In this document: in pieces, positions 3,168-54,693 of the stretch | Layout of the letters: every line of letters starts with the position of its first letter | How positions within the stretch are numbered: position 1 is the first letter of the stretch | DNA from: an uncultured Desulfobacterales bacterium | GTDB lineage: Bacteria > Desulfobacterota > DSM-4660 > Desulfatiglandales > JALVZP01 | Assembly (NCBI GenBank): GCA_964393645.1 | Contig: CAYMUI010000056.1 | Coordinates: 1 to 62,338 of the forward strand | Direction of reading: 5' to 3' | Length of the DNA stretch: 62,338 bases | Notes under the pieces: model-generated | The model's database searches: none | What the model was told of the DNA's origin: nothing | The model's input: the letters and a program-made list of their open reading frames with translations, nothing else | Position numbers and translations under genes: made by a program

Positions 3168-4424
3168 CTACTTTTTCTCTTTTATCTTTGAATCAGAATT
3201 TCTCAAGAAAGCCGGGTAATCCAAGTTTTTGATTTTATTTATGAGCCCTCTTTTTTTTCCCTTTTCATTCTCGTGACTGTTTTCAAGTTCTTCTTTTACT
3301 GACTGAGCTGTATAATCGCCAACTCTCCTTACAGTCCAGGGTTCTCTTATCTCTTCCGGTGTGGCGTCTCTGATTTTGCTTTTTATGTCCACCACATTTC
3401 CTCTCTGCTTCGGGTGAGCCCCCTCTTTCTCTTCTTCTCTTTCTTCTTCAACACTGTCTATCCCGGTAGCTATTACGGTAACCTGAATCTCGTCCTCTAT
3501 CCTGTCATCTATAACTACTCCCCAGTAAATGTCTACATCATCTTCATTTACTTGATTTCTCAAAAAGTTACACGCCGCATCTATCTCTTCCATACTTATG
3601 GTAGAAGGTCCTGTAATGTTTATCAAAAGACCTTTTGCACTACTGATAGAAATATCTTCAAGCAACGGGCTTTTAATAGCCATTTCGGCTGCTTCTATCG
3701 CTCTCTTATCACCGCTTGCTACTCCTCTTCCCATAAGAGCAGTGCCTCTTTTTTCCATCACTTTTTTTACATCAGCAAAATCTAAGTTAATAAATCCCTG
3801 ACTCGTTATAAGATCAGAGATGCCTTTTACTGCGTCTAAAAGAACATTATCTGCTTTTGCCAGAAGTTCTACAAAACTCATAGACTTTGTTCCTATGGAT
3901 TTTAGCTTTTCGTTATTTATGAGTATCAAGCTGTCCACTTCTCTTCTAAGCATTTCTATACCTTGAAGAGCCCTTTGCATCCTCTTTTCGCCTTCAAACA
4001 AAAACGGCTTGGTTACCACTGCCACTGTAAGAGCACCTGTTGCTTTGCATTCCCTTGCAATAACCGGAGACGCTCCTGTACCAGTACCACCTCCCATACC
4101 GGCAGTTATAAAGACCATGTCGGGATTTCCGAGATACTCTCTTATTTGATCCAGACTTTCCTCTGCTGCCTTCATCCCTATTTCTGGATCTCCACCAGCT
4201 CCGAGTCCCATAGTAAGGTTAGGCCCTAACTGAATCTTTGATTCTGTAAGCGCCCTGTCTAAATCTTGAGCATCCGTGTTTGCAACTATAAAGTCCACTC
4301 CTTGTAATTTTGCGTTGATCATGTTGTTGATAGCGTTGCACCCGGCTCCGCCTACTCCTATGACTTTTATCTTTGTCAGATTATATACCTTTCTTTCTTC
4401 TACTATGTTAAATTTTGCTGCCAT
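3168..4424 (-). CDS. ftsZ: Cell division protein FtsZ
   Basis: [23 protein letters not shown] tubulin signature, INLDFADV, C-terminal LDYPAFLR. Confidence 0.99.
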
Positions 4425-4444
4425 ACTTAAACCTCCTATATTTT

Positions 4445-5671
4445 TTAAAAGACTTCGCTAAACCATCTTTTCATGGTATTCATTATTTTCAAAAATATGT
4501 TGGAATCTCTTATTCTAAACTTCCTCTTCTTTTTTCTTTCTCTTGCCCCGTACATAAGAAGTCCCAATGCCGTGGCATACATTGGCTCTTTTGCTATTTC
4601 AGATCTTCCTCCCACATCCTTTGGATAGCCTATTCTTGCAGGAACACGAAATACCCTTTCTGCTACTTCCACTATGCCATTCAATAGCGCTGAACCTCCC
4701 GTTATGATAACACCGCAGTTGAGATCTACATCTACCTCGGCTCTTATAAGGTCTTCGTACAACAGTGAAAATATCTCCTCCACTCTCGGTTCCAATATTT
4801 CGGCAATCCTTTTTTTTGATACCTTTCGAGTACCGTTTTCATTAAAGCCTTTTATCTCTACAAATTCATCTTCAGATACCAAAGAAACAGAACCGCAACC
4901 GTACTTTTTCTTTATCTCTTCCGCTTCTTTCTGAGATGTCTTCAGCCCTACAGACAGGTCATAGGTAAGATTATTACCTCCTAAGGGTAACACAGAGGTA
5001 TGTCTTATTGCACCCTTTGAAAAGACCGCCATATCCGTAGTTCCACCGCCCAAGTCAATAAGTATAACATTTCCTTTTTTTTCATCCTCTTTGAGAACGG
5101 CATCACTTGAGGCTATAGCTTGGAGAATTATGTCACAAACATCTAAGCCGGCGTTGTTCACGCACTTTATAATATTCTGGGCAGCTGTGACAGCAGCGGT
5201 TATTATGTGAAGTCTTACACCAAGTCTCACACCAGACATGCCTATTGGATTTTGGATTCCTTCTTCATCATCTACTTTGTACTCTTGCACTATAGTCTGA
5301 ATTATTTCTCTATCCATGGGTATAGCCACAGCACTTGCCACATCGATTACCCTTTCCAGATCTTTTTTGGTTATCTCTTTGTGTTTAATAGGGATGGAAC
5401 CATCGCTATTAAAGCTTTTTATATGACCACCAGCAATTCCCACATAGACTGCGTCTATTTCACAACCTGAGTCCTTTTCCGCTTTTTCTACAGCTTTTTC
5501 TATAGAACGAACAGTCTCATCTATATCTACAACCACACCCTTCCTTAAACCGTTAGACGGATGAGTTCCCATTCCGACGATTTCTAAGCTATCGTCCTCC
5601 CCCACTTTTCCTACTAATGCACAGATCTTTGTAGTTCCCACATCAAGACCTACAACAATATCTTTATCCAT
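4445..5671 (-). CDS. ftsA: Cell division protein FtsA
   Basis: GLDVGTTK, GLRKGVVVDI, IDLGGGTTD, ITGGSALL; start set to the ATG at 5671 behind GGAG. Confidence 0.98.
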   Translation of the reverse strand: MDKDIVVGLDVGTTKICALVGKVGEDDSLEIVGMGTHPSNGLRKGVVVDIDETVRSIEKAVEKAEKDSGCEIDAVYVGIAGGHIKSFNSDGSIPIKHKEITKKDLERVIDVASAVAIPMDREIIQTIVQEYKVDDEEGIQNPIGMSGVRLGVRLHIITAAVTAAQNIIKCVNNAGLDVCDIILQAIASSDAVLKEDEKKGNVILIDLGGGTTDMAVFSKGAIRHTSVLPLGGNNLTYDLSVGLKTSQKEAEEIKKKYGCGSVSLVSEDEFVEIKGFNENGTRKVSKKRIAEILEPRVEEIFSLLYEDLIRAEVDVDLNCGVIITGGSALLNGIVEVAERVFRVPARIGYPKDVGGRSEIAKEPMYATALGLLMYGARERKKKRKFRIRDSNIFLKIMNTMKRWFSEVF

Positions 5672-6476
5672 TTGCACTCCCTAATCTGACCACTGCTCCA
5701 TTTTTTATACAGTCCAGATCTATGGATGTTATCTTTATTTGGGCATAATTTGTGAAATAATTCAATACTTTTTTTAGTTCTTTAATCTTTTTTGTAATTC
5801 TATTCTGATCCAAGTATTCGATCTGATGGGTAAAAATCACCTCAACTCTTGGGCTGGTAAAATAAATGTGTGCACTTCCGTACTCGGTTACATGAAGCTC
5901 TGAAATCCTGTTGATACCTTTTTTAACAAGCGCGTGAATTACATTTATCGCTTTTTGCAAACGGACATTAAAATCGGGATCGTCAGGTTCAAGACCTGTT
6001 ATTATGGGAAGATCTACGGATTCGCCTCTTTTTTTGATCCTAAAAATCTTTCCTTTTAGATCTAAGTAAAAAAGATCGTCTCCGATTAAGATCAATGCAA
6101 ACGGAATCTCTTTCTTTATATCTATAATCAATGTGTCAGGAAACTTTTTCCTTATCTTCACAGCTCTTATATCTGGATTCATCTCTATCTTCTTTTCTAA
6201 CTCATCTTTATCAAACAAGATTATATTTTGATTTTCTTTCTTTAACCTAAGAATCCTCATTACATATCTTTTCTCTTCTTTGTCTCCGCCATTTATTATT
6301 ATTCTCTTTATTCTGAACCGAGGAGATTCTGTTATAAGATTGTACAGCTTTAAAAGTCCCAAACTAACCAAAGATGTAACGAGCATTCCTGCAAATAGAA
6401 AAAAAAGCCACGGTCTTATCGCGCTTTTTTTCGTTTTGCTTTTTTGATTCTTTCTATTTTTTTTCTTTTTTCTCAT
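5664..6476 (-). CDS. ftsQ: Cell division protein FtsQ/DivIB
   Basis: Basic N-tail, single TM segment, POTRA-like region (IRKKFPDTLIIDIKKE), position between murB and ftsA. Confidence 0.88.
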   Translation of the reverse strand: MRKKKKNRKNQKSKTKKSAIRPWLFFLFAGMLVTSLVSLGLLKLYNLITESPRFRIKRIIINGGDKEEKRYVMRILRLKKENQNIILFDKDELEKKIEMNPDIRAVKIRKKFPDTLIIDIKKEIPFALILIGDDLFYLDLKGKIFRIKKRGESVDLPIITGLEPDDPDFNVRLQKAINVIHALVKKGINRISELHVTEYGSAHIYFTSPRVEVIFTHQIEYLDQNRITKKIKELKKVLNYFTNYAQIKITSIDLDCIKNGAVVRLGSANG

Positions 6477-7372
6477 TAATCGAAACCAACAAATTTTATT
6501 TCAGGATTAAGCCTTATACCATACTTGGTTTCTACTTTATCTCTTACCATTTTTATAAGAGCCATTACATCGGAGGCAGTGCTATTGCCTTTATTTATAA
6601 TGAAGTTGGCGTGAAGTTCAGAAATCATGGCATCTCCGATACTTTTACCTTTTAAGCCCGCTTTTTCAATAAGACTGCCCGCATAATCTCCCGCAGGATT
6701 TTTGAATATACAGCCTGCACTATAATGGTTAATAGGTTGGGTTTTCATTTTGCGTTTCAGGTAAAAAGAAATTCTTTCCCTGACCTTCTCTCTGCTATCC
6801 ACATCCATTCTAAACCATACATGTGTTATGATACTACAGTTGCTTAGATGCATTTTTCTATAGGAAAACCGCAGCTCTTGTTTTTCCTTCAGTAGTACTC
6901 CTCCAGAAGGACTTACAAGTTTTACCTTCTCCACCCTATCTGACACTTCTCCTCCAAAAGCCCCTGCATTCATAAAAACCGCTCCTCCTACAGTTCCGGG
7001 AATTCCTGCCAAAAATTCTAATCCACTGAATCCGTTTTTTACACAACAACTTAACAAACGAGATATAGGCACGCCTGCTCCTGCCATGATAAGCGTGTTT
7101 TCGTTGCTCAGTCTTTCAAATTCTCCCTTAAGTCTTATGACGACTCCTTTAAAACCAGAATCATTTACAAGAATGTTACTTCCATTTCCTAAAACAAAGT
7201 AGGGAATCTGTTCATGATTTAAATAACTCACAAGCTTTTTTAACTCTTCAAGGTCGGCTACATCACAGAGTGCCCAAGCCTTTCCCCCGATCTTAAATGT
7301 GGTGTATGGAGCAAGCACGACATCAAAGCGGGTATTAGGACATATACACTTGATGAATTTAAGCTTTTTCAT
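6476..7372 (-). CDS. murB: UDP-N-acetylenolpyruvoylglucosamine reductase
   Basis: YTTFKIGG, LGNGSNILV, GIPGTVGGAVFMNAGAFG, SAGCIFKNP, ISELHANFIIN. Confidence 0.98.
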   Translation of the reverse strand: MKKLKFIKCICPNTRFDVVLAPYTTFKIGGKAWALCDVADLEELKKLVSYLNHEQIPYFVLGNGSNILVNDSGFKGVVIRLKGEFERLSNENTLIMAGAGVPISRLLSCCVKNGFSGLEFLAGIPGTVGGAVFMNAGAFGGEVSDRVEKVKLVSPSGGVLLKEKQELRFSYRKMHLSNCSIITHVWFRMDVDSREKVRERISFYLKRKMKTQPINHYSAGCIFKNPAGDYAGSLIEKAGLKGKSIGDAMISELHANFIINKGNSTASDVMALIKMVRDKVETKYGIRLNPEIKFVGFD

Positions 7373-8741
7373 TTTGTAAAAATCTTTCTCCTACAAGGTA
7401 TATATTTCCGGCTCCGAGGGTAAGGATCATATCGCCTGGTTTTGCTACAGACATAAGTATAGAAAGGGTTTCGTCTAATCCTTTGCTATATATCACATTT
7501 TTGTGACCATACTCTTTTATAGCGCGTGCAAGTCTTTCTGAAGTAACGCCTTCGATGGGAGGCTCTGAAGCAGGATAAATAGGATTCACGATAAGCACAT
7601 CTGCGTAATCAAAAGAGGTGACAAACTTGTCAAAAAGCGCTTTTGTTCTGGAATATCTGTGAGGTTGAAAAGCCACTATAAGCCTTTTATCTGGCCACCA
7701 TTGTTTTATGGTCTTAAGAGTGGCTACAATTTCTGTAGGATGGTGTCAATAATCATCCATAACAAGTATTTTTCTTACTTCTCCTTTTATCTGAAATCTC
7801 CTTTCAAGACCGCCTATATTTCTGAGACCCTTAGTTATGGAATTTATGTCTATTTCCAGCTCCATGGCAACTGCAATAGCAGCAAGAGCATTCAATACAT
7901 TGTGAACCCCGGGCATTCCAACAAATATCTCGCCCAAACTTTTTCCTTTATATACAAGCTCAAACTTGGTGCCAAAGCCCTCTTTTCTCAAAAAATGCCC
8001 TTTTATGTCTGCATCTGTTTCTAAACCATATGTAACATACCTTCTCTTCACATAAGGAATAATCCTTCTTATCTGCTCGTCATCTAAACACAGAACAGCC
8101 AATCCATAGAAAGGAAGCTTGTTTACGAATTCAACAAAGGAATTTCTAAGGTTTTCCATACTCTTGTAGTAGTCCATATGTTCGTAGTCTATGTTTGTTA
8201 CCACAGATATAACCGAAGAAAGTCTTAAAAATGTCCCGTCACTTTCGTCTGCCTCTGCTATGAGAATGTCTCCTTGGCCAAGTCTTGCGTTTGACCCGTT
8301 CCATATACTCAATCTCCCACCTATGATAACCGTAGGATCCATCTCTGCTGCATTAAGTATAGATGCGATCATGCAGGTGGTAGTGGTCTTTCCGTGAGCA
8401 CCTGACACAGCTATCCCGTATTTAAAGCGCATGAGTTCCGCTAACATTTCAGCTCTTGGAATAACAGGAATAGCCTTTTTTCTTGCCTCAACTAACTCTG
8501 GATTTTCATCCGAAACAGCCGAAGAATAAACCACTACATCTACTCCATCTATGTGATTAGTGCTGTGGAAATATTCTATCTTTGCACCTAAGGACTCTAA
8601 CCTTTCTGTTGTGGGGCTTTTCTTTAAATCGCATCCACTGACTTCATATCCCAGATTTATAAGAAGCTCTGCGATCCCGCTCATTCCTATTCCACCTATT
8701 CCAACAAAGTGCAGTTTTTTTACCTTCTTAAGAAGTTTCAT
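7359..8741 (-). CDS. murC: UDP-N-acetylmuramate--L-alanine ligase, interrupted by an in-frame TGA at 7746-7748
   Basis: [28 protein letters not shown]; reading through the TGA gives DDY*HHPTEI...[10 protein letters not shown] in one frame (460 aa). The two ORF-track pieces (7746-8741, 7359-7676) are in the same frame. Confidence 0.93.
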
Positions 8742-9828
8742 TTCTCTTTAACCTCATCTGTGACATGTAGTTTACAATATGCTCAGCGATCATCCTTGCA
8801 GATTCGGGATTTGCCAGTTTTCGGGCGTTATGCCCTAAGATGTGTAAAAGTTCTGGTCTGTGCACAAAAGCCTCTATAAACATGGCAAGCTTTTCTGGAG
8901 TAAGCTGAGACTGTAAAATAACCACTCCTCCTCCTATTCTCTCCAGCATAAGAGCATTCTTCTCTTGGTGATTATCAGTAGCAAAAGGATAAGGTATAAG
9001 AATAGAAGGTTTTCCTGCAGCAGCCAATTCAAAAATACTCGATGCTCCTGCTCGGCTTATTACCAGATCTGCTTTGCTTAACAATTCCGGCATGTTATAC
9101 GAAAAGCCAAAGACATCAGCACTTACTCCGATTTTTTCGTATTCTTTTTTTACTCTTTCAAAGTCAACCTCTCCTGTTTGGTGTATCACGCAAGGATTAA
9201 TCCCCTTATTCAGAAGCAACTTAAGTGCTTGTAAAAATATGCTGTTTATAGTAACAGATCCCTGACTGCCGCCAATTACAAGTATAGTAAACCTTGATTT
9301 TTTTTCTTTTTCAACACGAAAAAACTCTTTTCTTACGGGATTTCCGCTGTAAAAACACCTATCTCCTTTAAGCAATTTTTTTGTTTCCTTGAAAGAGACA
9401 AAAAGCCTGTCCAAAATAAAGAGCCTATACAAAGTACGATTTGCACGACCAGGGATAAGATTCTGTTCATGAGCAAATACAGGAATCCCCATAAACTTAC
9501 CTACTACGCATATCACCGCACTTAAAAAACCGCCAAGCCCTAATATCACATCAGGCGGACTTTTTCTTAACAGATTAAACGCCTTAAAAACTAACAGAGG
9601 TTGTTTTAAAGGAGCTTCTGCTTCGACAAAAACGGTCCGATAGTTGTATTTTTTTACTATAGCAGGTGCAGGACCTTTTTTGTTGGTAACGAATGTAACA
9701 TTTAATTCCTGCACACACTCTTTAAGAGCCTCTAAAATGCATATCCCAGGATATATGTGTCCGCCTGTCCATGCAGATACCACAAGAATATCCAATTTTT
9801 TTAATAACTTACCTTTTTGAAGAAACAT
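8728..9828 (-). CDS. murG: Undecaprenyl-PP-MurNAc-pentapeptide GlcNAc transferase
   Basis: [43 protein letters not shown]; start uncertain (9828 ATG or 9795 TTG). Confidence 0.95.
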
Positions 9829-10912
9829 TTAAAAGTATTCCTATCTCCAGCATACTGAAAAGCAGAGAAGATCCTCCGTAACTTAAAAGAGGAAGAGTTA
9901 TACCTTTTGATGGCATAAGGTTCATTACAACCCCCATATTTATCAGGATCTGGATTCCAAGCATACAGCTTATCCCAAATGCCAAGTACTTATTGAAAAG
10001 ATTTTTGGTGTCTATGGCAATCTTTATTCCTTTAGCAATCACGATCATATAAAGCAGAATAATAACAAAGACTCCTACAAAACCTACTTCCTCTGCAATA
10101 ACAGAAAGTATAAAGTCTGTATGAGGCTCTGGCAAATAAAACAGCTTTTGTTTCCCGGCTCCAAGTCCAACTCCGAATATCCCGCCTACGCCAAAGGCAT
10201 AAAGAGAGTGGATCGTTTGAAACCCATAGGTGTCAGCATATTTCCAAGGATTTCTGAATGCTTCCCATCTGTGAACAACATATGAGGAATGAGAAAAAAG
10301 ATACACTCCAACAGGAACGATAACAGCTAACACCAAAAAAAGTTGAAAAGGATTTGCACCGCCCACAAAGAGCATTATAAAAAGCCAAGCACCTATCATT
10401 ACCACAGAACCGTGGTCAGGCTGCTTCAATATCAACGCCATCACCAAACCAGCTACAATCAGATGGTGGAGAATACCTCTTTTAAAAGATCTCATTTCCA
10501 GACACTTATCAGCCATAGAATATGCCATATAAACGCAAAGAGAAAATTTTGCCATCTCAGTAGGTTGAAAAGAAAAACCAAATGCCCTGATCCACCTTCT
10601 TGCACCGTTTACAGTGTGTCCTATAAAAAAAAGAGAAATCAAAGCACAGAGGCTTAAAAAAAACAGTCCTAAAACCACTTTTCTGTTAGAGAGTAAGTCC
10701 AACGGAAGCAACATTCCGGTTATCATAACGATGAGGCCTAAAAGACAAAATAAAGACTGTCTCTTCAAATACATATATGGATCACCAAATCTGTATAGAG
10801 CCAGGTTTGAACTGGCACTGTACACAAAAATAAGACCTGTACATATGAGTAGAAAAACGCAGATAAGTAATATGTAGTCGTATTGAGGAGCTTTATCGTT
10901 GATCCCTGTCAT
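9809..10912 (-). CDS. ftsW: SEDS family peptidoglycan polymerase FtsW
   Basis: GARRWI, FQPTEMAK, LKQPDHG, LPEPHTDFI, GITLPLLSYGGSS; dcw position. Confidence 0.96.
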   Translation of the reverse strand: MTGINDKAPQYDYILLICVFLLICTGLIFVYSASSNLALYRFGDPYMYLKRQSLFCLLGLIVMITGMLLPLDLLSNRKVVLGLFFLSLCALISLFFIGHTVNGARRWIRAFGFSFQPTEMAKFSLCVYMAYSMADKCLEMRSFKRGILHHLIVAGLVMALILKQPDHGSVVMIGAWLFIMLFVGGANPFQLFLVLAVIVPVGVYLFSHSSYVVHRWEAFRNPWKYADTYGFQTIHSLYAFGVGGIFGVGLGAGKQKLFYLPEPHTDFILSVIAEEVGFVGVFVIILLYMIVIAKGIKIAIDTKNLFNKYLAFGISCMLGIQILINMGVVMNLMPSKGITLPLLSYGGSSLLFSMLEIGILLNVSSKR

Positions 10913-45031: not shown

Positions 45032-46906
45032 ATGTCAAAGCTTACAGTACAAGATCTCGACAAGATAAAAGAGAATATGCAAAAGGAAATGTTGCTTAGA
45101 GAAGGGAAAAAAACGCCTGCTGCAAAGCATAGATTACACCTCATGCTTTGTAGTGGTACAGGATGTCAAGCCTCTGGCAGTAAAGAAGTAAAAAAAGCCT
45201 TAGAAGAAGAACTAAAAAAAGCAGGACTTGATAAGGAAGTACTCATTGTGGAGACAGGTTGTAACGGCTTTTGCGCTCAAGGGCCCGTTATGGTGGTTCA
45301 TCCTGACAACATATTTTACCAAAAGTTGAAACCAGAACATGCCCCTCTGCTTGTCGAAGAACACTTTCTTAAAGGAAAACCAGTAGAAAAGCTCATGTAC
45401 AAAGATGCTGCCACCAAAAAGGTGATCCCACTGTTGGATCAAATTCCGTTCTTTTCAAATCAAATGGCCATTGTGTTAAAAAACAGAGGGCTTATAGATC
45501 CGGAAAACATAGATGAATACATAGCAAGAGATGGATACAAAGCCGTTGCAAAAGCTCTCTTAGATATGAGCCCTGAAGAGATAATAGAAGAGATAAAAAG
45601 ATCAGGGTTGAGAGGAAGAGGAGGAGCTGGATTTCCAACCGGACTTAAGTGGGAGTTTGCAAGAAAGGCCCCAGGTGATGTGAAGTATATAATCTGCAAT
45701 GCAGATGAAGGAGATCCTGGAGCATTTATGGACAGAAGTGTATTGGAAGGAGATCCTCATGCGGTGCTGGAAGGGATGATTATAGGAGCAAAAGCGATTG
45801 GTGCTATTAGGGGGTTCATATACTGCAGAGCAGAATATCCTTTGGCACTAAGAAGACTCGAAATAGCTATATCACAAGCAAAAGAATATGGTCTGTTGGG
45901 AGAAGATATACTTGGAAGCGGATTCAACTTCGACATTGAGATATATCAAGGAGCGGGTGCATTCGTATGTGGTGAAGAAACCGCACTTATGGCCTCCATA
46001 GAAGGAAGAAGGGGAAATCCAAGGCCAAGACCTCCTTACCCTGCTCAAAAAGGGCTTTGGGGAAAACCAACAGTGATAAATAATGTGGAAACCTTTGCAA
46101 ATGTTCCAAAGATTATACTTAACGGTGGAGATTGGTTCGCGGGTATAGGCACGGAGAAAAGCAAAGGAACAAAAGTATTTGCGCTTACGGGCGATGTAAA
46201 CAACATAGGGCTTGTGGAAGTGCCCATGGGAACTACACTCAGAACCATAATATTTGATATTGGAGGAGGAATACCTAAAAAAAGAAAATTCAAAGCTGTC
46301 CAACTTGGTGGGCCTTCTGGTGGATGTATTCCTGAAAAGTATCTGGATACACCGGTAGATTACGAATCTATCACGGAGTTGGGGGCAATAATGGGCTCAG
46401 GCGGAATGATTGTTATGGATGAAAAAACATGTATGGTAGATATGGCAAGATTTTTCTTGAGATTTATCCAAGATGAGTCTTGTGGAAAATGTCCCCCATG
46501 TCGTGAAGGAACGGGAAGAATGCTGGAGATCTTGGACAGGATAGTGGAAGGAAAAGGAGAACCCGGAGATATAGAGCTTCTGGAAGAATTGAGTTACATG
46601 ATAAGGGATACAGCCCTGTGTGGACTTGGGCAGACAGGACCAAACCCGGTTCTTTCAACCCTGAGACACTTCAGAGAGGAATACGAAGCGCACATATACG
46701 AAAAGAGATGCCCTGCAAAGGTTTGCAAGGCATTACTAAAATTTGAAGTAGATGAAGACAAGTGCAAAAGATGTGGAATATGTTACAAAAATTGTCCAGC
46801 AGGAGCTATTGAATGGGAGAAGAAGAAAACAGCACGCATAATAAAGGACAAGTGTATAAAGTGTATGACATGTATAATGAACTGCCCAGCAGATGCCATC
46901 TTTTAA
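45032..46906 (+). CDS. NuoF/HydB-like NADH/FMN-binding subunit with extra N- and C-terminal Fe-S domains
   Basis: CSGTGC...GCNGFC, GLRGRGGAGF, NADEGDPGAFMDR, GAGAFVCGEET, GGPSGG, CGKCPPCREG, two C-terminal CxxCxxCxxxCP. Confidence 0.96.
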   Translation: MSKLTVQDLDKIKENMQKEMLLREGKKTPAAKHRLHLMLCSGTGCQASGSKEVKKALEEELKKAGLDKEVLIVETGCNGFCAQGPVMVVHPDNIFYQKLKPEHAPLLVEEHFLKGKPVEKLMYKDAATKKVIPLLDQIPFFSNQMAIVLKNRGLIDPENIDEYIARDGYKAVAKALLDMSPEEIIEEIKRSGLRGRGGAGFPTGLKWEFARKAPGDVKYIICNADEGDPGAFMDRSVLEGDPHAVLEGMIIGAKAIGAIRGFIYCRAEYPLALRRLEIAISQAKEYGLLGEDILGSGFNFDIEIYQGAGAFVCGEETALMASIEGRRGNPRPRPPYPAQKGLWGKPTVINNVETFANVPKIILNGGDWFAGIGTEKSKGTKVFALTGDVNNIGLVEVPMGTTLRTIIFDIGGGIPKKRKFKAVQLGGPSGGCIPEKYLDTPVDYESITELGAIMGSGGMIVMDEKTCMVDMARFFLRFIQDESCGKCPPCREGTGRMLEILDRIVEGKGEPGDIELLEELSYMIRDTALCGLGQTGPNPVLSTLRHFREEYEAHIYEKRCPAKVCKALLKFEVDEDKCKRCGICYKNCPAGAIEWEKKKTARIIKDKCIKCMTCIMNCPADAIF

Positions 46907-48215
46907 ACAGAGTACTTTGAGAAAGGAGCTGGGGTTTTGGGACTCTATAGCTATATCAGTAGGTATTGCTATAGGAGTGGGGATATTCAGGGTTCCATCA
47001 GAAATAGCGGCTATAATGCCGTATCCCCAGCTCATTATAACAGCTTGGCTTGTAGGTGGACTGCTATGCCTATTTGGTGCTCTATGTTATGCTGAACTTT
47101 CTTCTACCTTTCCAGAAACAGGTGGAGACTATGTCTACATAAGGGAAAACTATGGGCTTCTTCCTGCATTTCTCTACGGGTGGGCCTCTATATTTATCAT
47201 CAGAACAGGAATAATAGCAGCGGTTGCTTTTGTATTTTCAGAATACCTGTGTTCGCTCACTTGTCTGTGTAAAGGGTTTATCAAACCCGTTGCCATAAGC
47301 ACTATTGTATCTCTGTCGCTGATAAATGGAATAGGTGTAAGAATTGGAAAAAATCTATTAAATTTGTCGGTAATGACCAAAGTCATTGCCCTTGTTGTGC
47401 TTATTATATGTGCTCTTTCTTCATCTAAAGGAAGCACAGAAAATCTTCATGTAGGATTGGATAAAAGCGCTTTCGAAATAGTCAATATGTTTGCCCTTGC
47501 ACTTGTGCCCGTGCTTTGGACTTATGGGGGATGGCATGAAAGCACATTTATGACAGGTGAAACAAAAGATGCTCAAAAAGTTCTTCCCATAGCACTTATT
47601 ACAGCCACTTTAATCATAACGGGAATATATGTTCTTCTTAATGTAAGCTATCTGTATCTCATCCCTGTCCAGTCAGTCAAAGAACTTCCCCTTATAGCAG
47701 GAGAAGTAATGAAACTTATATTTGGAAAGTGGGCAAAAAAAGGCATAGAATTTTTAATAGTCATTTCATCCTTTGGAACGCTCAATGCTACCATAATGAC
47801 ATCCAGCAGGATCACCTATGCTATGAGTAAAGACAATCCATTTTTTAAATATCTATCTCGTATAAGTACCAGATTCGGTACCCCTTTTAGAGCGCTCGTA
47901 CTGAATGCCGTCTTGGCTTCAATTCTCGTGGCATGGGGAACATTTAACAAACTGCTCTTTTTTACAGGTCTTCTGGTATGGCTGTTTTTTGGTGTGATTG
48001 TGTCAGCTGTGATTGTGTCAAGGATAAAGTACCCTGAACTAAAAAGACCGTTTAAAGCGTGGGGCTATCCTTTTACCCCCGTGGTATTTGCTTGTGTGTG
48101 TTTCTGGATGTGTGTTGATATATTTTTTAGATATAAGTTGCAGTCCATATGTGGTTTAGGAATCATGATAAGTGGAATAGTGGTTTATAAGATAAGCATG
48201 AGTTTAAAAATTTGA
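46893..48215 (+). CDS. APC-superfamily amino acid permease
   Basis: GIAIGVGIF, YAELSSTFPETGGDYVY, YGGWHE, RITYAMS, RPFKAWGYP; multiple TM segments. Confidence 0.93.
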   Translation: MPSFKQSTLRKELGFWDSIAISVGIAIGVGIFRVPSEIAAIMPYPQLIITAWLVGGLLCLFGALCYAELSSTFPETGGDYVYIRENYGLLPAFLYGWASIFIIRTGIIAAVAFVFSEYLCSLTCLCKGFIKPVAISTIVSLSLINGIGVRIGKNLLNLSVMTKVIALVVLIICALSSSKGSTENLHVGLDKSAFEIVNMFALALVPVLWTYGGWHESTFMTGETKDAQKVLPIALITATLIITGIYVLLNVSYLYLIPVQSVKELPLIAGEVMKLIFGKWAKKGIEFLIVISSFGTLNATIMTSSRITYAMSKDNPFFKYLSRISTRFGTPFRALVLNAVLASILVAWGTFNKLLFFTGLLVWLFFGVIVSAVIVSRIKYPELKRPFKAWGYPFTPVVFACVCFWMCVDIFFRYKLQSICGLGIMISGIVVYKISMSLKI

Positions 48216-48267: not shown

Positions 48268-49446
48268 ATGGCAGAGAAAATAAAAACCATAAGGGAGATT
48301 AATGAAAAGATAAAAAAAGGCAATGTCGTGGTGGTAACTGCCGAGGAAATGGTACAAATCGTAAAAAAGTACGGGGCAAAAAAGGCAGCAAAAGAAGTAG
48401 ATGTAGTAACGACCGGCACCTTCTCTCCCATGTGCTCTTCAGGAGCTTTTCTGAACTTTGGTCACTCAAAACCTCCTATAAAAGCTTATAAGGTCTGGCT
48501 CAACGGCGTTCCAGCCTATGCAGGACTTGCTGCAGTGGATATATACATAGGTGCTACCGAACCAGCAGAAGACGATCCTTTAAATAAGGTGCATCCAGGT
48601 CAATTCAGATACGGTGGAGGACATGTTATTCAAGACCTTGTGGCAGGAAAAAAGATAGAACTAAGAGCTATAGCTTATGGAACCGACTGTTATCCAAAGA
48701 AAGAGCTTAGAAAAAAGATCTCTATAAAAGATGTCCCAAATGTCATAATGGTAAATCCCAGAAATTCGTATCAAAACTACAACTGTGCCATAAACCTATC
48801 AAATAAAACAAAATATACATACATGGGAGTTCTCAAGCCTAACGGGACAAATATAAATTATGCAACTGCTGGCCAGTTAAGCCCTTTATTTAATGATCCC
48901 TACTTCCTTACTATCGGAATCGGCACGAGAATATTCTTAGGAGGTGCTCAGGGATACATAATAGGACCTGGGACTCAGTACAAATACGAGGTTGAAAGAA
49001 CAGAAAAAGGCATCCCCATAGAGCCTGCTGGAACGCTTATGGTAACGGGAAATCTAAAAGAGATGAGCCCGAAGTGGGTTGTAGGGGTGAGCATACTCGG
49101 ATACGGCTGTTCACTGGCGGTAGGAATAGGCATCCCCATTCCTGTAATAAATGAAGAAGTAGCAAAGTATACTGGTATTTCTGATGAAGAAATACTTACA
49201 AGGATAATAGACTATGGAAACGATTACCCAAAAGGGGAAGCTAAACCGCTCGGAATTGTAAGTTACGCAGAATTAAAGACAGGGAGTATAAAATTCAGAG
49301 GACAGGAAGTACAAACAGTTCCGGTATCTTCATACAAAAAGGCAAAAGAGATAGCAGAGCTTTTAAAAGAACAGATAAAAAAAGGAGACTTTTTCTTGAC
49401 AGAACCAGTTGCTCCTCTTCCTGGAGCAAGACTGGCATGGACATAA
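48268..49446 (+). CDS. Homocysteine biosynthesis protein (aspartate-semialdehyde sulfurtransferase, COG1900/MA1821-like, no CBS domains)
   Basis: KTIREINEKIKKG, VVTAEEM, DVVTTGTFSPMCSSG, LAAVDIYIGAT, QLSPLFNDP, IGIPIP. Confidence 0.9.
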   Translation: MAEKIKTIREINEKIKKGNVVVVTAEEMVQIVKKYGAKKAAKEVDVVTTGTFSPMCSSGAFLNFGHSKPPIKAYKVWLNGVPAYAGLAAVDIYIGATEPAEDDPLNKVHPGQFRYGGGHVIQDLVAGKKIELRAIAYGTDCYPKKELRKKISIKDVPNVIMVNPRNSYQNYNCAINLSNKTKYTYMGVLKPNGTNINYATAGQLSPLFNDPYFLTIGIGTRIFLGGAQGYIIGPGTQYKYEVERTEKGIPIEPAGTLMVTGNLKEMSPKWVVGVSILGYGCSLAVGIGIPIPVINEEVAKYTGISDEEILTRIIDYGNDYPKGEAKPLGIVSYAELKTGSIKFRGQEVQTVPVSSYKKAKEIAELLKEQIKKGDFFLTEPVAPLPGARLAWT

Positions 49447-49540
49447 AAGGAAAATATTTAGATGGAGTGCTATTGGATTTACGGACAGCTATCAGTGATT
49501 TTTGAAGAAAGGTTAGCATGTGTTTTTGATAGGACCAACT

Positions 49541-49564
49541 GGCAGAAGGGGATTTTTTGCCTTT
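49541..49564 (+). terminator. Possible intrinsic terminator hairpin
   Basis: GGCAGAA-GGGGATT-TTTTGCC followed by TTT, ~95 nt after the preceding stop. Confidence 0.3.
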
Positions 49565-49573
49565 AAATAGATA

Positions 49574-50014
49574 ATGAAAATATATTTGGATAATTGTTGT
49601 CTTAATCGCCCTTTTGATAATCAACTTGACATAAAAATTCGATTAGAAACTGAAGCCAAACTATACATTCAGTATCTTATACAAAAGAAAAAACTTCAAA
49701 TAGTTTGGTCTTACATATTGGATTTTGAAAATAGTAAGAATCCTTTTGAAGAAAGAAAACAACAGATAGAAAGATGGAAAATATTTGCTGTTGAAGATAT
49801 TGAAGAAAATGATACTATTTTAACAATAGGCCAAAAATTAGAAAAAATCGGATTAAAAAAGATTGACGCTTTACATATAGCTTGTGCCATTTATGCTAAA
49901 TGTAATTATTTCATTACTACTGATAAAGGCATTCTAAAAAAGGCTAAAAGAATAAAAGAACTTATTGTGATTGATCCTATTAATTTTATTAGCGAGGTTT
50001 TAGATGCTTACTGA
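49574..50014 (+). CDS. PIN-domain ribonuclease (VapC-like toxin)
   Basis: KIYLDNCCLNRPFD, DALHIACA, FITTDK; visibly more AT-rich than the flanks. Confidence 0.88.
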   Translation: MKIYLDNCCLNRPFDNQLDIKIRLETEAKLYIQYLIQKKKLQIVWSYILDFENSKNPFEERKQQIERWKIFAVEDIEENDTILTIGQKLEKIGLKKIDALHIACAIYAKCNYFITTDKGILKKAKRIKELIVIDPINFISEVLDAY

Positions 50015-50210
50015 TACAGAAATAAAAATAAAAGGATATGAGATATTAACCAAATATTTAGGGGAAGTAGAGGCAGAGAGATTTATTGCGTTAATTCAAA
50101 GAGAGCCTTTTGATTATACTAAATGGCGGCAGAAGAACTTACCAGAGGCAGAAACAATAGAAGAGTTAAGTAAGATGGCAATGGAATACAGAAAAAGAAA
50201 AAAATCCTAA
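50004..50210 (+). CDS. Small protein, probable cognate antitoxin
   Basis: 68 aa, overlaps the PIN gene by 11 nt; LGEVEAERFIALI...DYTKWRQ pattern of PIN partner proteins. Confidence 0.7.
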   Translation: MLTDTEIKIKGYEILTKYLGEVEAERFIALIQREPFDYTKWRQKNLPEAETIEELSKMAMEYRKRKKS

Positions 50211-50266
50211 TAACTCGCTTCAGCGGACCCGGCTTAGCGCCGAGCAGCTGAGTTTTGGAATTAGAT
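50205..50266 (+). mobile_element. Degenerate integron attC recombination site
   Basis: TCCTAAT-AACTC-GCTTCAGC-GGACCCGGCTTAGCGCCGAGCA-GCTGAGT-TTTGGA-ATTAGAT: R''/L''/variable stem/L'/R' layout, 62 nt, with the upstream gene stop codon inside R''. Confidence 0.7.
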
Positions 50267-50287
50267 TGTTTAATGCGGGAGGAAAGC

Positions 50288-51553
50288 ATGTTTGAAAAAG
50301 CGTTAGAACTCGGAAGACCCCCTAACATAAGAAAACTTTTTCCAAATTCTAAGGCCCTTATAGTAAGCGGAAAGGTAATAGACAGGGCTCTTCTCAAAAA
50401 AGGAAATGCCATGACTATTGCTGCAAATGCCAGAAATCACATCATTATTAGAGGTGTCTTAAAAGCAGCTCAAAGGGCAAACGCGTGTATAATAATAGAA
50501 ATAGCAAAATCAGAAGGCGGGGTAGACGGATATTGTGCTGTAAGCTACTGGAACTTGGCAAGACAAGTGGATGCGGTTATGAATGAACTCGGAATCACGG
50601 TACCTGTGGCGGTTCATGCAGATCACTACAAGATAAAAGACGCGCAGGACTTGGAAATTGCTAAGATTGAGATTCCCTCTCTTTTTGATGCGGGCATAAC
50701 TTCTATTGCTATAGATGCCTCCAGCATGCCAGATGATGAAAATCTTTTGGCAAATATAACATTGAGTAAATATATTCCAAAGTGGGCAGGATACGAAACA
50801 GAAGTAGGGGAAATAAAAGGAGAAGAAGGGCTTTCCACACCAGAGGAAGCATTATTTCTTATAAGAGGGCTAAATGCTCACGGAATATTTCCTGATTGGA
50901 TAGCCATAAACAACGGAACTACTCACGGAATAGAAAAAACAGGCAGAGGAATCGATGTGGAGCTTACAGCAAGAATACACCAAGTATTAGAACCATACAG
51001 GGTATCTGGGGCACAACATGGAACCTCTGGAAACAGTTTTGAGCTTTTAAAAGAGATAGCAGAAAAGACCAACACTACGAAAGCAAATGTCTCTACAGCC
51101 CTTCAAATGATCTCGTGGGGTGTTAAAGTAAATGAGTATGGAAATGCAGAACTGGACAGCGATGGAAATCCCATAAAAGTGCTAAACAGAGGGGTCTCGG
51201 AACAACTATGGGAAGAAATGAAAGAATATGCCAAAAAACACCATTTAAAAGGAGGAGACTACAAAAAACTGAATCTTCCTTTTGAAAACAGAATATTAAG
51301 ACAGCCTCGTGAAATAAGAGAAAGAATGGCAAAAGATGTTGAAGACTTTGTTTATCACCTGTTGGTAAATGTATTCAACGCAAAAGATACTGCTCCTTTA
51401 GCAATAGAAGAGCTCCTGAAAGCAGGCTCTTACGATCTTGGCCCAAAGGCAAAGAGAATAGAAGATCCATCAGAGTGGACAGAAGAGAAGATCAGAGAAA
51501 AAGCAAAGCCGTTTTATAAAGATAAAAGCAGCGGAAAAGATTATGACGACTAA
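50288..51553 (+). CDS. fba: Class II fructose-bisphosphate aldolase family protein
   Basis: EIAKSE, VHADH, IAIDAS, ETEVGEI, NNGTTHG, AQHGTSG, KANVST; start at ATG 50288 behind GGAGG. Confidence 0.88.
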   Translation: MFEKALELGRPPNIRKLFPNSKALIVSGKVIDRALLKKGNAMTIAANARNHIIIRGVLKAAQRANACIIIEIAKSEGGVDGYCAVSYWNLARQVDAVMNELGITVPVAVHADHYKIKDAQDLEIAKIEIPSLFDAGITSIAIDASSMPDDENLLANITLSKYIPKWAGYETEVGEIKGEEGLSTPEEALFLIRGLNAHGIFPDWIAINNGTTHGIEKTGRGIDVELTARIHQVLEPYRVSGAQHGTSGNSFELLKEIAEKTNTTKANVSTALQMISWGVKVNEYGNAELDSDGNPIKVLNRGVSEQLWEEMKEYAKKHHLKGGDYKKLNLPFENRILRQPREIRERMAKDVEDFVYHLLVNVFNAKDTAPLAIEELLKAGSYDLGPKAKRIEDPSEWTEEKIREKAKPFYKDKSSGKDYDD

Positions 51554-54500
51554 CCAAAAAGGCTAAGCTGAGCAGGTTCTTTTTTGGATTTTGGACTCTT
51601 CTTTTTTCTGACACTTTCTACTAAATGAGCCGGGATCTTTTCAAGAAAAGAGGAAGGTCTTAAGTTTAACACTCTTGAACCTAATCTTCTTCTCTTTACA
51701 TGTGACAAGAAGAGCAGCTTTTTTGCTCTTGTAATCCCAACATAAAAAAGCCTTTTCTCTTCATCGATGTCTGGATTGCCAAATAGGGTGCACGGAATTA
51801 CGCCTTCCTCACAACCAGCTATAAACACCGCTTTCCATTCTAAACCTTTTGCTGAATGTAGAGACATAAGACTTATCCTGTCTCCCACAAGCTCAATATT
51901 GTCTATTCCTCTTTCTGTAGAGAGAAAATCCAGAAAAGACATAAGGTCTTTTTTACGATCAGAGGCTATGTCCAAAATTTTATTTACTGCTTTTAAAGAC
52001 ACCTCGTCTTTCTCAAACCCAAATTCATGAGTATGGAGTATGGCCTTTACTGTATTGTAAGCGTCTGACAGGGGTATCTGACTTACATCTTTACAAGGTA
52101 ACAATCCTTTATCTGACACAAGCTTTATATATCTTTCCCAATAAAACCTCCTTTTGTGTACAAGATAAAGAAGCAAACTGTAAATTACATTCACGGGGTA
52201 TATTTCCCTTAAGGGAACCTCCCCTGCTCTTATTACAGGTATCCCGGCTTTTTTAAAAGCAGCTTCAATCTCATCTCCGATAGAATTTATCCTGTAAAGT
52301 ACAGCAATATCTCCGAAGCTAAAGCCCTCTCCTTCATGAGACTGAACTGTCTGGCTGTCTAAGGAAAAATAAGATGTTCCTCCTATCAGTTTTTCTATGC
52401 TTTTTACTATGTACTCGGCTTCCTGTTTTTCTGTAGAACAAGAAGCAATAACTATTCTGCCTTTTTCATCTGAAACAGCCTGCATAGGCTCTTTGTCTAA
52501 GATGGCCGCTCCTGCTTTAAGTATTTCAGGTGCGGATCTGTAGTTTTTATCAAGGCTTATCTGAACAGCATCTTCAAATTCTTCGCAAAACCTAAGGAAT
52601 GCACTTCTGTCGGCACCTCTAAAACCATATATGGCCTGATCCGGATCTCCAATGGCAAACACAAAAGAGTCTCCTGCTTTAGAAATAGCCTTTAATATGC
52701 CCACCTGATTGGGATTTGTATCTTGGTATTCATCTACAAATATATATGGTCTCATTCGGGATATCTCAGCAGCTATCTCAGGATAAGTTCTCAAAAGCTC
52801 AAAAGCCATTCGTTCTAAGTCATCTATGTCAAGCATATTCATGGCTTTTAACTTTTTACTGTATTCTTCGTAACACCTGCTTACTTCAGAATCATCGAGC
52901 TCTTTTAAAACGCCGCTTTTTACAAAAGGAAGAAGTTTCAAAAGCTTATCTGCGACTCTTTTTTTACCACATACTTGTCTTATTATTTCTTCAGATTCCC
53001 AACTGCTACATATAGAAAAATCTTTGCCGATACCTATAAGATCCCCTTTTTCTCTCAAGATCCACAGACAAAATGAATGAAAAGTAGAAATCCAAATCCC
53101 ATCGCTTGAGTGTCTCAAAAGCTTTTCAATCCTGTCTCTCATTTCGTCTGCTGCCTTGTTAGTAAAAGTAATTGCGAGTATCTGATCAGGCTTTGCTTTA
53201 CCAGATCTAACCAAATAAGCTATTCTGTGAGTAAGAGTTAATGTCTTTCCAGAACCAGGACCTGCAACTACAATGACATTTTTTCCACTGTGAAACACAG
53301 CCTCTCTTTGAGCCGGATTTAGCACATCTAAGATAGGATCAAACTGTTGGGACTTTTTAGAAAGATTTTCAGATCTAATGCTCTTCTTTTTGTTAAGCTT
53401 AGGAAGGTCTCTTTTGTAATGAAGATTCTTTTTTGAGGAAATCTTAAAAAGAAGCGATTGACCAGAAAAAATGGCTTTCTCTCCGTCTTCAAACAATCTT
53501 ATCTTTCCGTATTCTCCATCATATCCCGGTTTTTTAATAACCTTTTGCTCTCTCATTCTCTTTATCGCTTCTGCAAGCAACTCTCCTCCGGCTTCTTTTA
53601 TATCTTCTAAGGATACATCCATAAGGATACTTAACTCTGAACCAAGCTCTGAGGTGAGTCTTTCGTATTCTTGCCTTACTTTTTTTGTCTCCACCCCACA
53701 ATCCATTATTTCAGAGATTATTTCTGTCAGAGGGATAAGAGAATAAAAGGGTTTCTTTAAAACCGGCTCCTCTCTATCAGCAAGCTCGTATACCCTGTGT
53801 AGTACCCCTATGGTTAAAGGGTTTCCGCACACAGGACATATATTGTTTAAAGCCATGCTTTCCTTTGGATTAAGACATACATTACATCTTCTGTGTCCAT
53901 CCAGATGGTATTTTCCTTCCTCTGGAAAAAACTCAACAGTACCCAAGAATCCTTTTCCACTCTTCATAGCGTCTACTAAGGAATAGTAATTGAGATCTGT
54001 ATCGAATATATTTGCCTCTCTTCCGAGCCTTGTAAGAGAGTGGGCATCCGAATTAGATACCAGCACATAAGAGTCTAAGTCAGACAAAAGCCTATTCATC
54101 GGCGGATCGGAAGAAAGACCGGTTTCAAGTGCATGTATATACTTTGTAAGATCCTCAAAACACTCCTCTATGTGATCAAATCCGGACTTAGAGCCAAAAA
54201 GAGAAAACCACGGAGTCCATATATGAGCAGGAATAAAAAAGGCATCAGCAGATACTTCCAATACTATCTCTAAAAGAAGTTTTGCATCTAAACCAAGAAC
54301 GGGTCTTCCGTCTGCACTCAAGTCTCCAATTTTCGAAAGTCTTTTATTAAGTTTTTTTGCAGACTCTATATCAGGAAGTAGTATAAGGTTGTGAATCTTT
54401 CTGAGCTTTCCGGCTTTCTTATATATACAGCTTATCTCACCGGAGATGACGAATCTCGGCTCTATTGCTTCTGTAGATAAGGGAATAGGATCTTTTAGTT

Positions 54501-54693
54501 TATACAATCCATCTTCTGCTTCCTTTAACTCGTCTTCTATTTCAGATAACCACTTGGGATGAGTAAAGTCTCCTGTTCCTATTACTGCGATCCCTTTTTT
54601 TGCTGACCAAATGGCTATGTTTCTCAAAGTTAACAGGGGAGAAGTTGCTCTTGAATAAGGAGAATGGATGTGAAGGTCTGCAAAGAACCTCAT
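51550..54693 (-). CDS. Endonuclease Q-like PHP domain fused to a UvrD/PcrA-family helicase
   Basis: N: ADLHIHSPYSRATS, GTGDFTHP, AHIWTPWFS, ETGLSSDP, NSDAHS, GKYHLDGHRRC..C...CPVC; C: AGPGSGKT, DEYQD, GDPDQAIYGFRGA, NYRS, SLHSAKGLEW, EEKRLFYVGITRAK. Confidence 0.93.
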   Translation of the reverse strand: MRFFADLHIHSPYSRATSPLLTLRNIAIWSAKKGIAVIGTGDFTHPKWLSEIEDELKEAEDGLYKLKDPIPLSTEAIEPRFVISGEISCIYKKAGKLRKIHNLILLPDIESAKKLNKRLSKIGDLSADGRPVLGLDAKLLLEIVLEVSADAFFIPAHIWTPWFSLFGSKSGFDHIEECFEDLTKYIHALETGLSSDPPMNRLLSDLDSYVLVSNSDAHSLTRLGREANIFDTDLNYYSLVDAMKSGKGFLGTVEFFPEEGKYHLDGHRRCNVCLNPKESMALNNICPVCGNPLTIGVLHRVYELADREEPVLKKPFYSLIPLTEIISEIMDCGVETKKVRQEYERLTSELGSELSILMDVSLEDIKEAGGELLAEAIKRMREQKVIKKPGYDGEYGKIRLFEDGEKAIFSGQSLLFKISSKKNLHYKRDLPKLNKKKSIRSENLSKKSQQFDPILDVLNPAQREAVFHSGKNVIVVAGPGSGKTLTLTHRIAYLVRSGKAKPDQILAITFTNKAADEMRDRIEKLLRHSSDGIWISTFHSFCLWILREKGDLIGIGKDFSICSSWESEEIIRQVCGKKRVADKLLKLLPFVKSGVLKELDDSEVSRCYEEYSKKLKAMNMLDIDDLERMAFELLRTYPEIAAEISRMRPYIFVDEYQDTNPNQVGILKAISKAGDSFVFAIGDPDQAIYGFRGADRSAFLRFCEEFEDAVQISLDKNYRSAPEILKAGAAILDKEPMQAVSDEKGRIVIASCSTEKQEAEYIVKSIEKLIGGTSYFSLDSQTVQSHEGEGFSFGDIAVLYRINSIGDEIEAAFKKAGIPVIRAGEVPLREIYPVNVIYSLLLYLVHKRRFYWERYIKLVSDKGLLPCKDVSQIPLSDAYNTVKAILHTHEFGFEKDEVSLKAVNKILDIASDRKKDLMSFLDFLSTERGIDNIELVGDRISLMSLHSAKGLEWKAVFIAGCEEGVIPCTLFGNPDIDEEKRLFYVGITRAKKLLFLSHVKRRRLGSRVLNLRPSSFLEKIPAHLVESVRKKKSPKSKKEPAQLSLFG

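Follow-up and report, generated by a model that had tools for sequence, protein, structure and literature searches.

A lone putative PIN toxin cassette ending in a single attC site with a changed crossover pair in the core chromosome of an uncultured vent bacterium

A gene cassette with one attC site was found among the housekeeping genes of the DNA stretch analysed here (62,338 nucleotides, called the window). The 62 nucleotides at 50205-50266 of the plus strand are a genuine attC homologue and close a two-gene unit that codes for a PIN-domain protein and a small partner protein. Since neither an integrase nor a second attC is present in the window, the locus is a single attC lacking integron-integrase (SALIN-type). 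We regard it as probable that the locus is a frozen relic, a lone PIN toxin-partner cassette with its one attC that arrived within a scrap of foreign DNA. The match of the site to an attC covariance model, the homology to other cassettes, the empty site, the transposase scrap and the strain deletions were all observed directly. The preliminary description of this DNA had taken the locus for an orphan integron cassette, and the attC match, the cassette homologues and the failure to find a second attC or an integrase bear this out.

The window is a core chromosomal stretch with a cell-division and murein cluster, aromatic amino-acid synthesis and similar housekeeping genes, and its sequence is present in hydrothermal-vent metagenome runs. 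The cassette lies between the gene of HcyBio (48268-49446), a homocysteine-synthesis enzyme whose nearest relative (81% identical) comes from a Desulfobacterales genome bin, and the gene of a class II aldolase (FBA; ATG at 50288). A permease gene (46893-48215) stands before HcyBio. The convergent gene at 51550-54693 of the minus strand codes for a UvrD-like helicase of 1047 amino acid residues, of which about 450 make up a long N-terminal extension; the precomputed hits for its copy in assembly L081 include PF27218 MJ0043_C. The PIN pair has a GC content of 26-29% against about 40% for its neighbours, which supports the earlier view of an AT-rich module foreign to its housekeeping surroundings. 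The earlier statement that the window holds no integrase was also confirmed. A tblastn search of the 62-kb window with IntI1 gave no match, the 20 open reading frames of 289-418 amino acids belonged to housekeeping families throughout, and no gene for an IntI-like or other tyrosine recombinase was found in the 62 kb. With a single attC and no integrase over this length, the locus is neither a complete integron, which has intI, nor a CALIN with at least two attC sites nearby. The genome outside the window could carry an integron.

The attC starts with R'' (TCCTAAT, 50205-50211), followed by an unpaired spacer of 5 nt (AACTC) and by L'' (GCTTCAGC, 50217-50224), which contains one extra T. Behind the central stem CCCGGC/GCCGAG follow L' (GCTGAGT, 50247-50253), a second unpaired spacer of 6 nt (TTTGGA) and R' (ATTAGAT, 50260-50266), all on the plus strand. 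The extra base in L'' and the spacers are as expected of an attC, and the unpaired T50220 and A50227 occupy the same model positions as the bulges of natural sites. Only two non-standard pairs are present, G50225xA50246 and C50229xA50243. The stop codon of the partner gene (50208-50210) lies inside R'', and the attC is co-oriented with the genes at the 3' end of the cassette. The conserved triplets are AAT (50209-50211) and ATT (50260-50262) and not AAC and GTT, and the crossover pair is a standard T-A (T50211-A50260) where the canonical pair is C-G.

The membership in the attC family was tested with a covariance model (R1) built from 17 canonical attC sites beside homologous PIN cassettes in other metagenomes, with the window site excluded. 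Screens with RYYYAAC...GTTRRRY patterns had been too strict at first and then too loose, and the curated sites and the covariance model were used instead. In the underlying alignment (A5, 17 sites) 86.6% of the cells were paired and 58 were compensatory, and 0 of 500 shuffles were as good. When the whole 62-kb window was searched, R1 gave exactly one match, at 50205-50266 on the plus strand, with 34.7 bits and an E-value of 1.1e-5 over the full length of the model (1-73). With the filters switched off, no second attC was found near the cassette. The full attC architecture assigned to this 62-mer in the preliminary description, with its boxes and coordinates, is therefore recovered by a covariance model as the sole match in the window. 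The complementary changes of AAC to AAT and GTT to ATT noted there were also seen, as T50211 and A50260 pair normally in the R1 alignment. Such an attC architecture is far beyond chance.

The 62-mer might be seen as an ordinary intergenic hairpin, a terminator or a REP-like element, that resembles an attC by chance. Its fold energies are ordinary (DNA z-scores of -0.4 to -1.7), and thermodynamic folding was dropped as a test. The 62-mer lacks the canonical triplets, and it has no second copy in the window: its 37-mer core occurs once, and no related repeats were found. Against such a hairpin stand the independent full-length R1 match found nowhere else in the window, the base-by-base alignment with a canonical attC of the same cassette family, and the many copies of the same core with canonical R'' and R' in vent metagenomes. 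In addition, no intrinsic terminator was found at the site and the Rfam search returned nothing relevant. A chance hairpin is extremely improbable and effectively refuted by the R1 match, the repeated core and the alignment with the site of locus L169.

The relatives of the cassette were then compared. R1 detected 44 sites in 83 related loci, all on the gene strand and with 26-82 bits, and many homologous PIN pairs were flanked by textbook, co-oriented attC sites with the stop codon of the partner gene inside R''. In the loci L169 and L171, the DNA of the PIN pair is 92-94% identical to the window and a canonical attC of the same family lies directly upstream, with R' adjoining the start codon (ending in GGGCGTTAGAA immediately before ATG). 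The L169 attC reads ATCTAAC AACTC ACTTCAGCGGACCGGC GATA CCGCCGGCCGCTGAGT TTGGGC GTTAGAA and forms a perfect hairpin that scored 63.7 bits; the window attC aligns with it base by base. In the closest relatives with canonical sites, no more than 6 nt separate the 5' boundary of the cassette from the ATG (GTTAGAA-ATG, with the boundary after the first G). The homology to the window begins at the ATG because the cassette's own leader consists of these six nucleotides only.

The attC core (50205-50256) was found in about 20 different contigs of the runs X13 and X11, with a summed depth of up to about 940. The flanks of these copies were canonical, with ATTCTAACAAAC (TTCTAAC) on the left and GGGCGTTAGAT or AGGCGTTATGC (GTTAGAT or GTTATGC) on the right, a pattern typical of a large array in which the attC sites are almost identical. 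The search for similar sites elsewhere thus gave a divided answer, as the core is highly repeated in vent metagenomes but those copies have the canonical AAC and GTT. With AAC/GTT as the norm of the family, T50211 and A50260 are derived in the window.

The same PIN pair was found in at least five further settings. In L084 it lies, with 82-87% protein identity, beside a degenerate array and restriction or helicase genes, and in L086 between cobalamin genes. In L169 it stands beside tpiA and after a Phd-type cassette, and L170 and L171 are further settings. The pair forms a widespread cassette family. The L084 region (2837-10441) appears to be a decayed cassette array, in which the 87%-identical PIN pair is accompanied by a canonical attC (3335-3394, 48.8 bits), a degenerate one (4049-4112) and a second PIN pair (3450-4054); its neighbours are a SNF2/PLD helicase and an Eco57I-type restriction-modification gene. 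For the 94%-identical copies in L169 (1010-1120) and L170 (990-1095), the homology ends exactly after TCCTAA, within R'' and before the C/T position, and from there on the sequence belongs to the tpiA side of the host. On the left the two copies have different flanks, with the Phd-type cassette and its attC in L169 and unrelated DNA in L170.

The first gene of the cassette (49574-50014, plus strand) codes for a VapC-like PIN-domain protein of 146 aa, a putative toxin, with a Pfam PIN match of 3.4e-6. The AF2 model had a pLDDT of 93, and VapC toxins were the top Foldseek matches (probability 1.0, TM about 0.6). The residues D6, E52, D98 and D117 are invariant in 32 PIN homologues and provide the four acidic residues of the PIN fold. 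The protein has 4697 homologues; exact-protein look-ups of the PIN protein and the aldolase found no record. There was also a weak PADLOC match of the PIN protein to the candidate phage-defence family PDC-M11A (E 4e-5).

The second gene (50004-50210, plus strand) overlaps the PIN gene by 11 nt and codes for a conserved partner of 68 aa, a putative antitoxin. A metagenome scan returned 80 loci, and in 83 of 86 loci the partner gene came immediately after the PIN gene. Its 1376 homologues are all annotated as 'hypothetical'. No match was obtained in Pfam, NCBIfam or the PDB; the protein is predicted confidently as a four-helix fold, for which a fold match in the PDB was not found. An upstream VapB antitoxin with a DNA-binding domain is not present here, as the partner is downstream, helical and without a family or fold match.

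Two independent deletions in the PIN gene were observed among related strains. In L081 and in the runs X2 and X3, an in-frame deletion of 49899-49961 removes the residues 109-129, including the invariant T115-T116-D117, whereas in L088 an in-frame deletion at about 49823-49843 removes the residues 84-90. The partner gene is intact in the strains with either deletion, as would be expected of a toxic PIN protein with a protective partner. From this we infer that the PIN protein is probably toxic and neutralised by its partner, which most likely acts as the antitoxin.

The consequence of the changed crossover pair can be predicted from published mutants. Frumerie et al. (2010; PMC2811028) changed the same two complementary positions in attC G1/C3' double mutants, leaving the hairpin intact. 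With a wild-type partner, the recombination of these mutants was reduced 1,000- to 10,000-fold, and it was fully restored only when the partner shared the changed first nucleotide (PMC2811028). This mutagenesis predicts that the window site is locked against ordinary GTT sites, with its paired AAT/ATT change blocking the exchange. Among 43 natural sites the triplet deviated in R'' in 4 cases, in R' in 1 case and in both in none. An R' with ATT for GTT was observed in two other natural attC sites, at 1086-1143 of L145 and in one X13 contig. L145 keeps AAC in R'', and the X13 contig has a loose end after window position 50240 with R'' beyond view. The lone copies in L084 (5630-5645) and L086 (5628-5640) read TAATAA at the end of the partner gene, with AAC changed to AAT. 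The change of AAC to AAT seems to have arisen more than once outside of arrays, because closer relatives of the window keep AAC. In L086 the string ACCTAAT...ATTAGGG was considered as an attC and treated as chance, since R1 with the filters off found none.

Compared with the perfect hairpin of L169, the window site shows mostly GC-to-AT differences, and two uncompensated stem mismatches are left. Decay was simulated with 5-8 GC-to-AT hits on the L169 site in a simple AT-biased model. The crossover pair was compensated in 0.8-2.6% of the trials (about 1-3%), and some G:C pair in 12-35%. The compensation at the crossover pair is suggestive as a sign of selection but not compelling. The strain variants C50224G, G50225A and C50238T lower the R1 score to 26.3 bits; the polymorphisms at 50224 and 50225 break the stem, and purifying selection was not seen.

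These data also bear on the question whether the AAT/ATT site could be a working attC with switched partner specificity, which would recombine with ATT-type sites by an ordinary or an atypical integrase and keep the cassette mobile, having been so placed here or in the donor. The full recombination between partners that share the changed nucleotide (PMC2811028) is in line with a switch, as are the compensated T:A pair in a preserved hairpin and its 1-3% chance in neutral decay, which leaves room for a selection for pairing. The ATT in R' of two other natural sites, the TAAT of the lone L084 and L086 copies and the sequence AAATAGATA just upstream of the ATG, which resembles the R' ATTAGAT, can be added. 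On the other hand, the polymorphic block described below does not end at the crossover between A and TT, the 62 kb contain neither an integrase nor a second site, and the closest family members have AAC/GTT. Likewise, the site has two uncompensated stem mismatches and stem-breaking polymorphisms without purifying selection, and an attC was not detected at the lone L084 and L086 copies. We consider a working site of switched specificity quite unlikely. Even a little less likely is the related idea that the T:A crossover is a natural specificity switch which prevents the return to GTT sites and allows the placement at ATT-type genomic sites. If it were true, the change of AAC to AAT in the window, L084 and L086 and the ATT in R' of the vent sites would mark an exit route of cassettes from the integron to the chromosome. 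The attC is best read as frozen and non-functional, because no integrase is nearby and its decay is visible. Of the two possibilities left by the preliminary description, a frozen cassette or a variant site of an atypical integrase, the first is favoured by this decay and by the AAC/GTT of the relatives, and the second has gained no positive support.

A block of 829 bp (49449-50277) that contains the cassette is present in some strains and absent in others; its position is ambiguous by 3 nt, since GGA occurs at both ends (49449-49451 and 50278-50280). The earlier suggestion to look for the empty site was followed by aligning Logan contigs of vent runs to the region. In one assembled contig of 2981 bp and depth 11.5 from one vent run (X2), 49448 is followed immediately by 50278, with 2 and 4 mismatches over flanks of 479 and 723 nt (about 99.5% identity). 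The empty site reads GACATAAAA on the left and GGAGGAAAGCATG on the right of the junction; the stop codon of HcyBio is followed there by a ribosome-binding site and the start codon of the aldolase gene (stop-AAGGAGG-ATG). The cassette-bearing contigs of the same run have a depth of only about 2.8 and carry the toxin-dead allele. The occupied form was found in the independent assemblies L081, L082, L083 and L088. Synteny was also compared in 80 genomes whose HcyBio is most closely related; the aldolase never adjoins HcyBio there, and no empty site was obtained from them. Without the block, the spacer between HcyBio and aldolase is 13 nt. An insertion into this spacer is the simpler reading of these sequences, because a random deletion would hardly have stopped 2 nt behind the one gene and 10 nt ahead of the other. 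The divergence of the flanks among all alleles is only 0.4-1% and uninformative on the polarity of the indel; the empty form may be ancestral or the product of a precise loss.

The block is larger than the cassette. It begins 125 nt before the ATG of the PIN gene and ends 17 nt past the R' crossover, so its ends are not at the attC crossover. The left part contains the 3' end of an IS256-family transposase gene (49468-49519, plus strand, W-IYGQLSVIFEERLA), with 90% identity to L172 over 40 nt. The L172 product has 54 aa and ends with VIKDWGIIYGQLSVIFEEKLEA before the stop, and tblastn with this peptide found annotated IS256 family transposases on 592 plasmids with E-values down to 1e-8. A raised depth of 23-67x was observed over 49466-49539, and loose ends lie on either side. 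Similar IS256 scraps were observed at high depth in the same vent metagenomes, and in L172 (330-494) an unrelated gene and a terminator-like hairpin precede what is left of the transposase gene, its last 54 codons. The sequence GTTAGCA at 49512-49518, which had been proposed as the 5' boundary of the cassette because it pairs well with R'' after circularisation, encodes the residues ERLA within the transposase-derived codons and is for this reason not a cassette boundary. The proposal also fails because the block starts 63 nt upstream of it and the relatives have their boundary 6 nt before the ATG. A GTTRRRY motif is expected by chance in about 5% of leaders of 127 nt.

Two other origins of the leader were considered. 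As a relic of a second partner gene it showed only FDxTxW matches (hmmsearch in six frames, E 0.006), and IS256 was favoured. As a relic of an upstream attC it showed 65% ungapped likeness to L089, and R1 found no attC in it. On the right, the tail of the block past the crossover (50261-50277, plus strand) has 17 nt, TTAGATTGTTTAAT, and resembles the leader that precedes the PIN gene in L170 and in run X10. The shared string AGATTGTT(T)AAT lies at 50261-50274 in the window, and in L170 (about 343-356) and X10 it precedes the PIN start by 19 nt; two cassettes of this type in tandem in the donor, or the junction of a circular cassette, could be its source. Together these sequences point to another genome as the source of the block, which may have been part of a decayed cassette region there.

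The ends of the block also speak to the way of insertion. The insertion of an attC into a genomic secondary site by the integrase (attC x attG) makes junctions at GWT, cut after the G, next to R' (Loot et al., bioRxiv 10.1101/2022.09.11.507474). The block ends between 49448 and 49449 and between 50277 and 50278, which is neither an end at such a GWT site nor a start with TTRRRY. An attC x attG insertion could still have been followed by an imprecise deletion of 829 bp that included the native spacer. Loot et al. (bioRxiv 10.1101/2022.09.11.507474) described frequent insertion at GWT sites and imprecise excision deleting neighbouring DNA, and the occupied contigs of run X2 are toxin-dead, which would permit the loss. 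However, the DNA within the block looks foreign on both sides of the cassette (the IS256 scrap and the leader-like sequence of a PIN cassette), the deletion ends lack GWT or GTT, and the empty allele has a tidy stop-AAGGAGG-ATG operon junction. That a random deletion should leave 2 nt behind one gene and 10 nt in front of the other is improbable as well. We consider this course unlikely. A transposon-like insertion was rejected, since inverted repeats are absent at the block ends and a 3-nt repeat does not fit IS256.

For the frozen relic cassette, we infer both the route of insertion and the loss of recombination activity. Its attC would have been drawn from the family that is highly repeated in hydrothermal-vent metagenomes. 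The cassette probably did not arrive by integrase recombination at this attC but was carried in the 829-bp foreign scrap, which has the IS256 fragment on the left and runs on for 17 nt past the crossover on the right. This scrap would have been inserted into the 13-nt HcyBio-aldolase spacer by illegitimate recombination, to which the mere 3-nt GGA repeat at the ends points. The crossover pair would have changed from C:G to T:A, keeping the hairpin, with a predicted loss of the exchange with GTT sites. The toxin and its partner probably form a selfish module for stabilisation or defence, which now seems to be on its way out of the population, with toxin deletions first and the whole block afterwards.

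The locus was compared with known systems. Like a SALIN (bioRxiv 10.1101/2022.09.11.507474, where the concept and the attG rules are given), it has one coding cassette and one attC among chromosomal genes without an integrase or another att site nearby. It differs in its junctions, which are not of the attC x attG type, in the 829-bp foreign scrap around the cassette and in the T:A instead of C:G crossover. With the toxin-antitoxin cassettes of sedentary chromosomal integrons (Vibrio superintegron; PMC11023631 context), it shares the two-gene addiction-type organisation, the stop codon in R'' and homologues in arrays of highly similar attC sites. In contrast to these, the toxin is PIN/VapC-like and placed before a partner that belongs to no described family, and the copy in the window is outside of any array. 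The G1/C3' mutants of Frumerie et al. (PMC2811028) have the same complementary cleavage-site positions changed with the hairpin pairing kept, whereas the window site is natural, has other uncompensated damage and an activity that is only predicted. VapBC type II systems have in common with the pair the PIN fold, the four acidic residues, the small overlapping (co-transcribed) partner and the toxin-first decay in the population, but here the toxin gene comes first and the partner has no recognisable VapB-like DNA-binding fold. The locus is a further case of a SALIN or toxin-antitoxin cassette and not a new recombination system.

The general understanding of integrons is unchanged by this locus. 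The toxin-first PIN family has thousands of members and is a common integron cassette with a partner of no described family or fold, and the window attC is a natural counterpart of the laboratory G1/C3' attC mutants. In conclusion, a cassette from a large environmental integron pool appears to have entered a core operon of this uncultured bacterium from a vent, to have become immobile there and to have undergone mutation and loss; occupied, toxin-dead and empty alleles exist side by side. Lone cassettes thus need not come from integrase action at the place where they are found.
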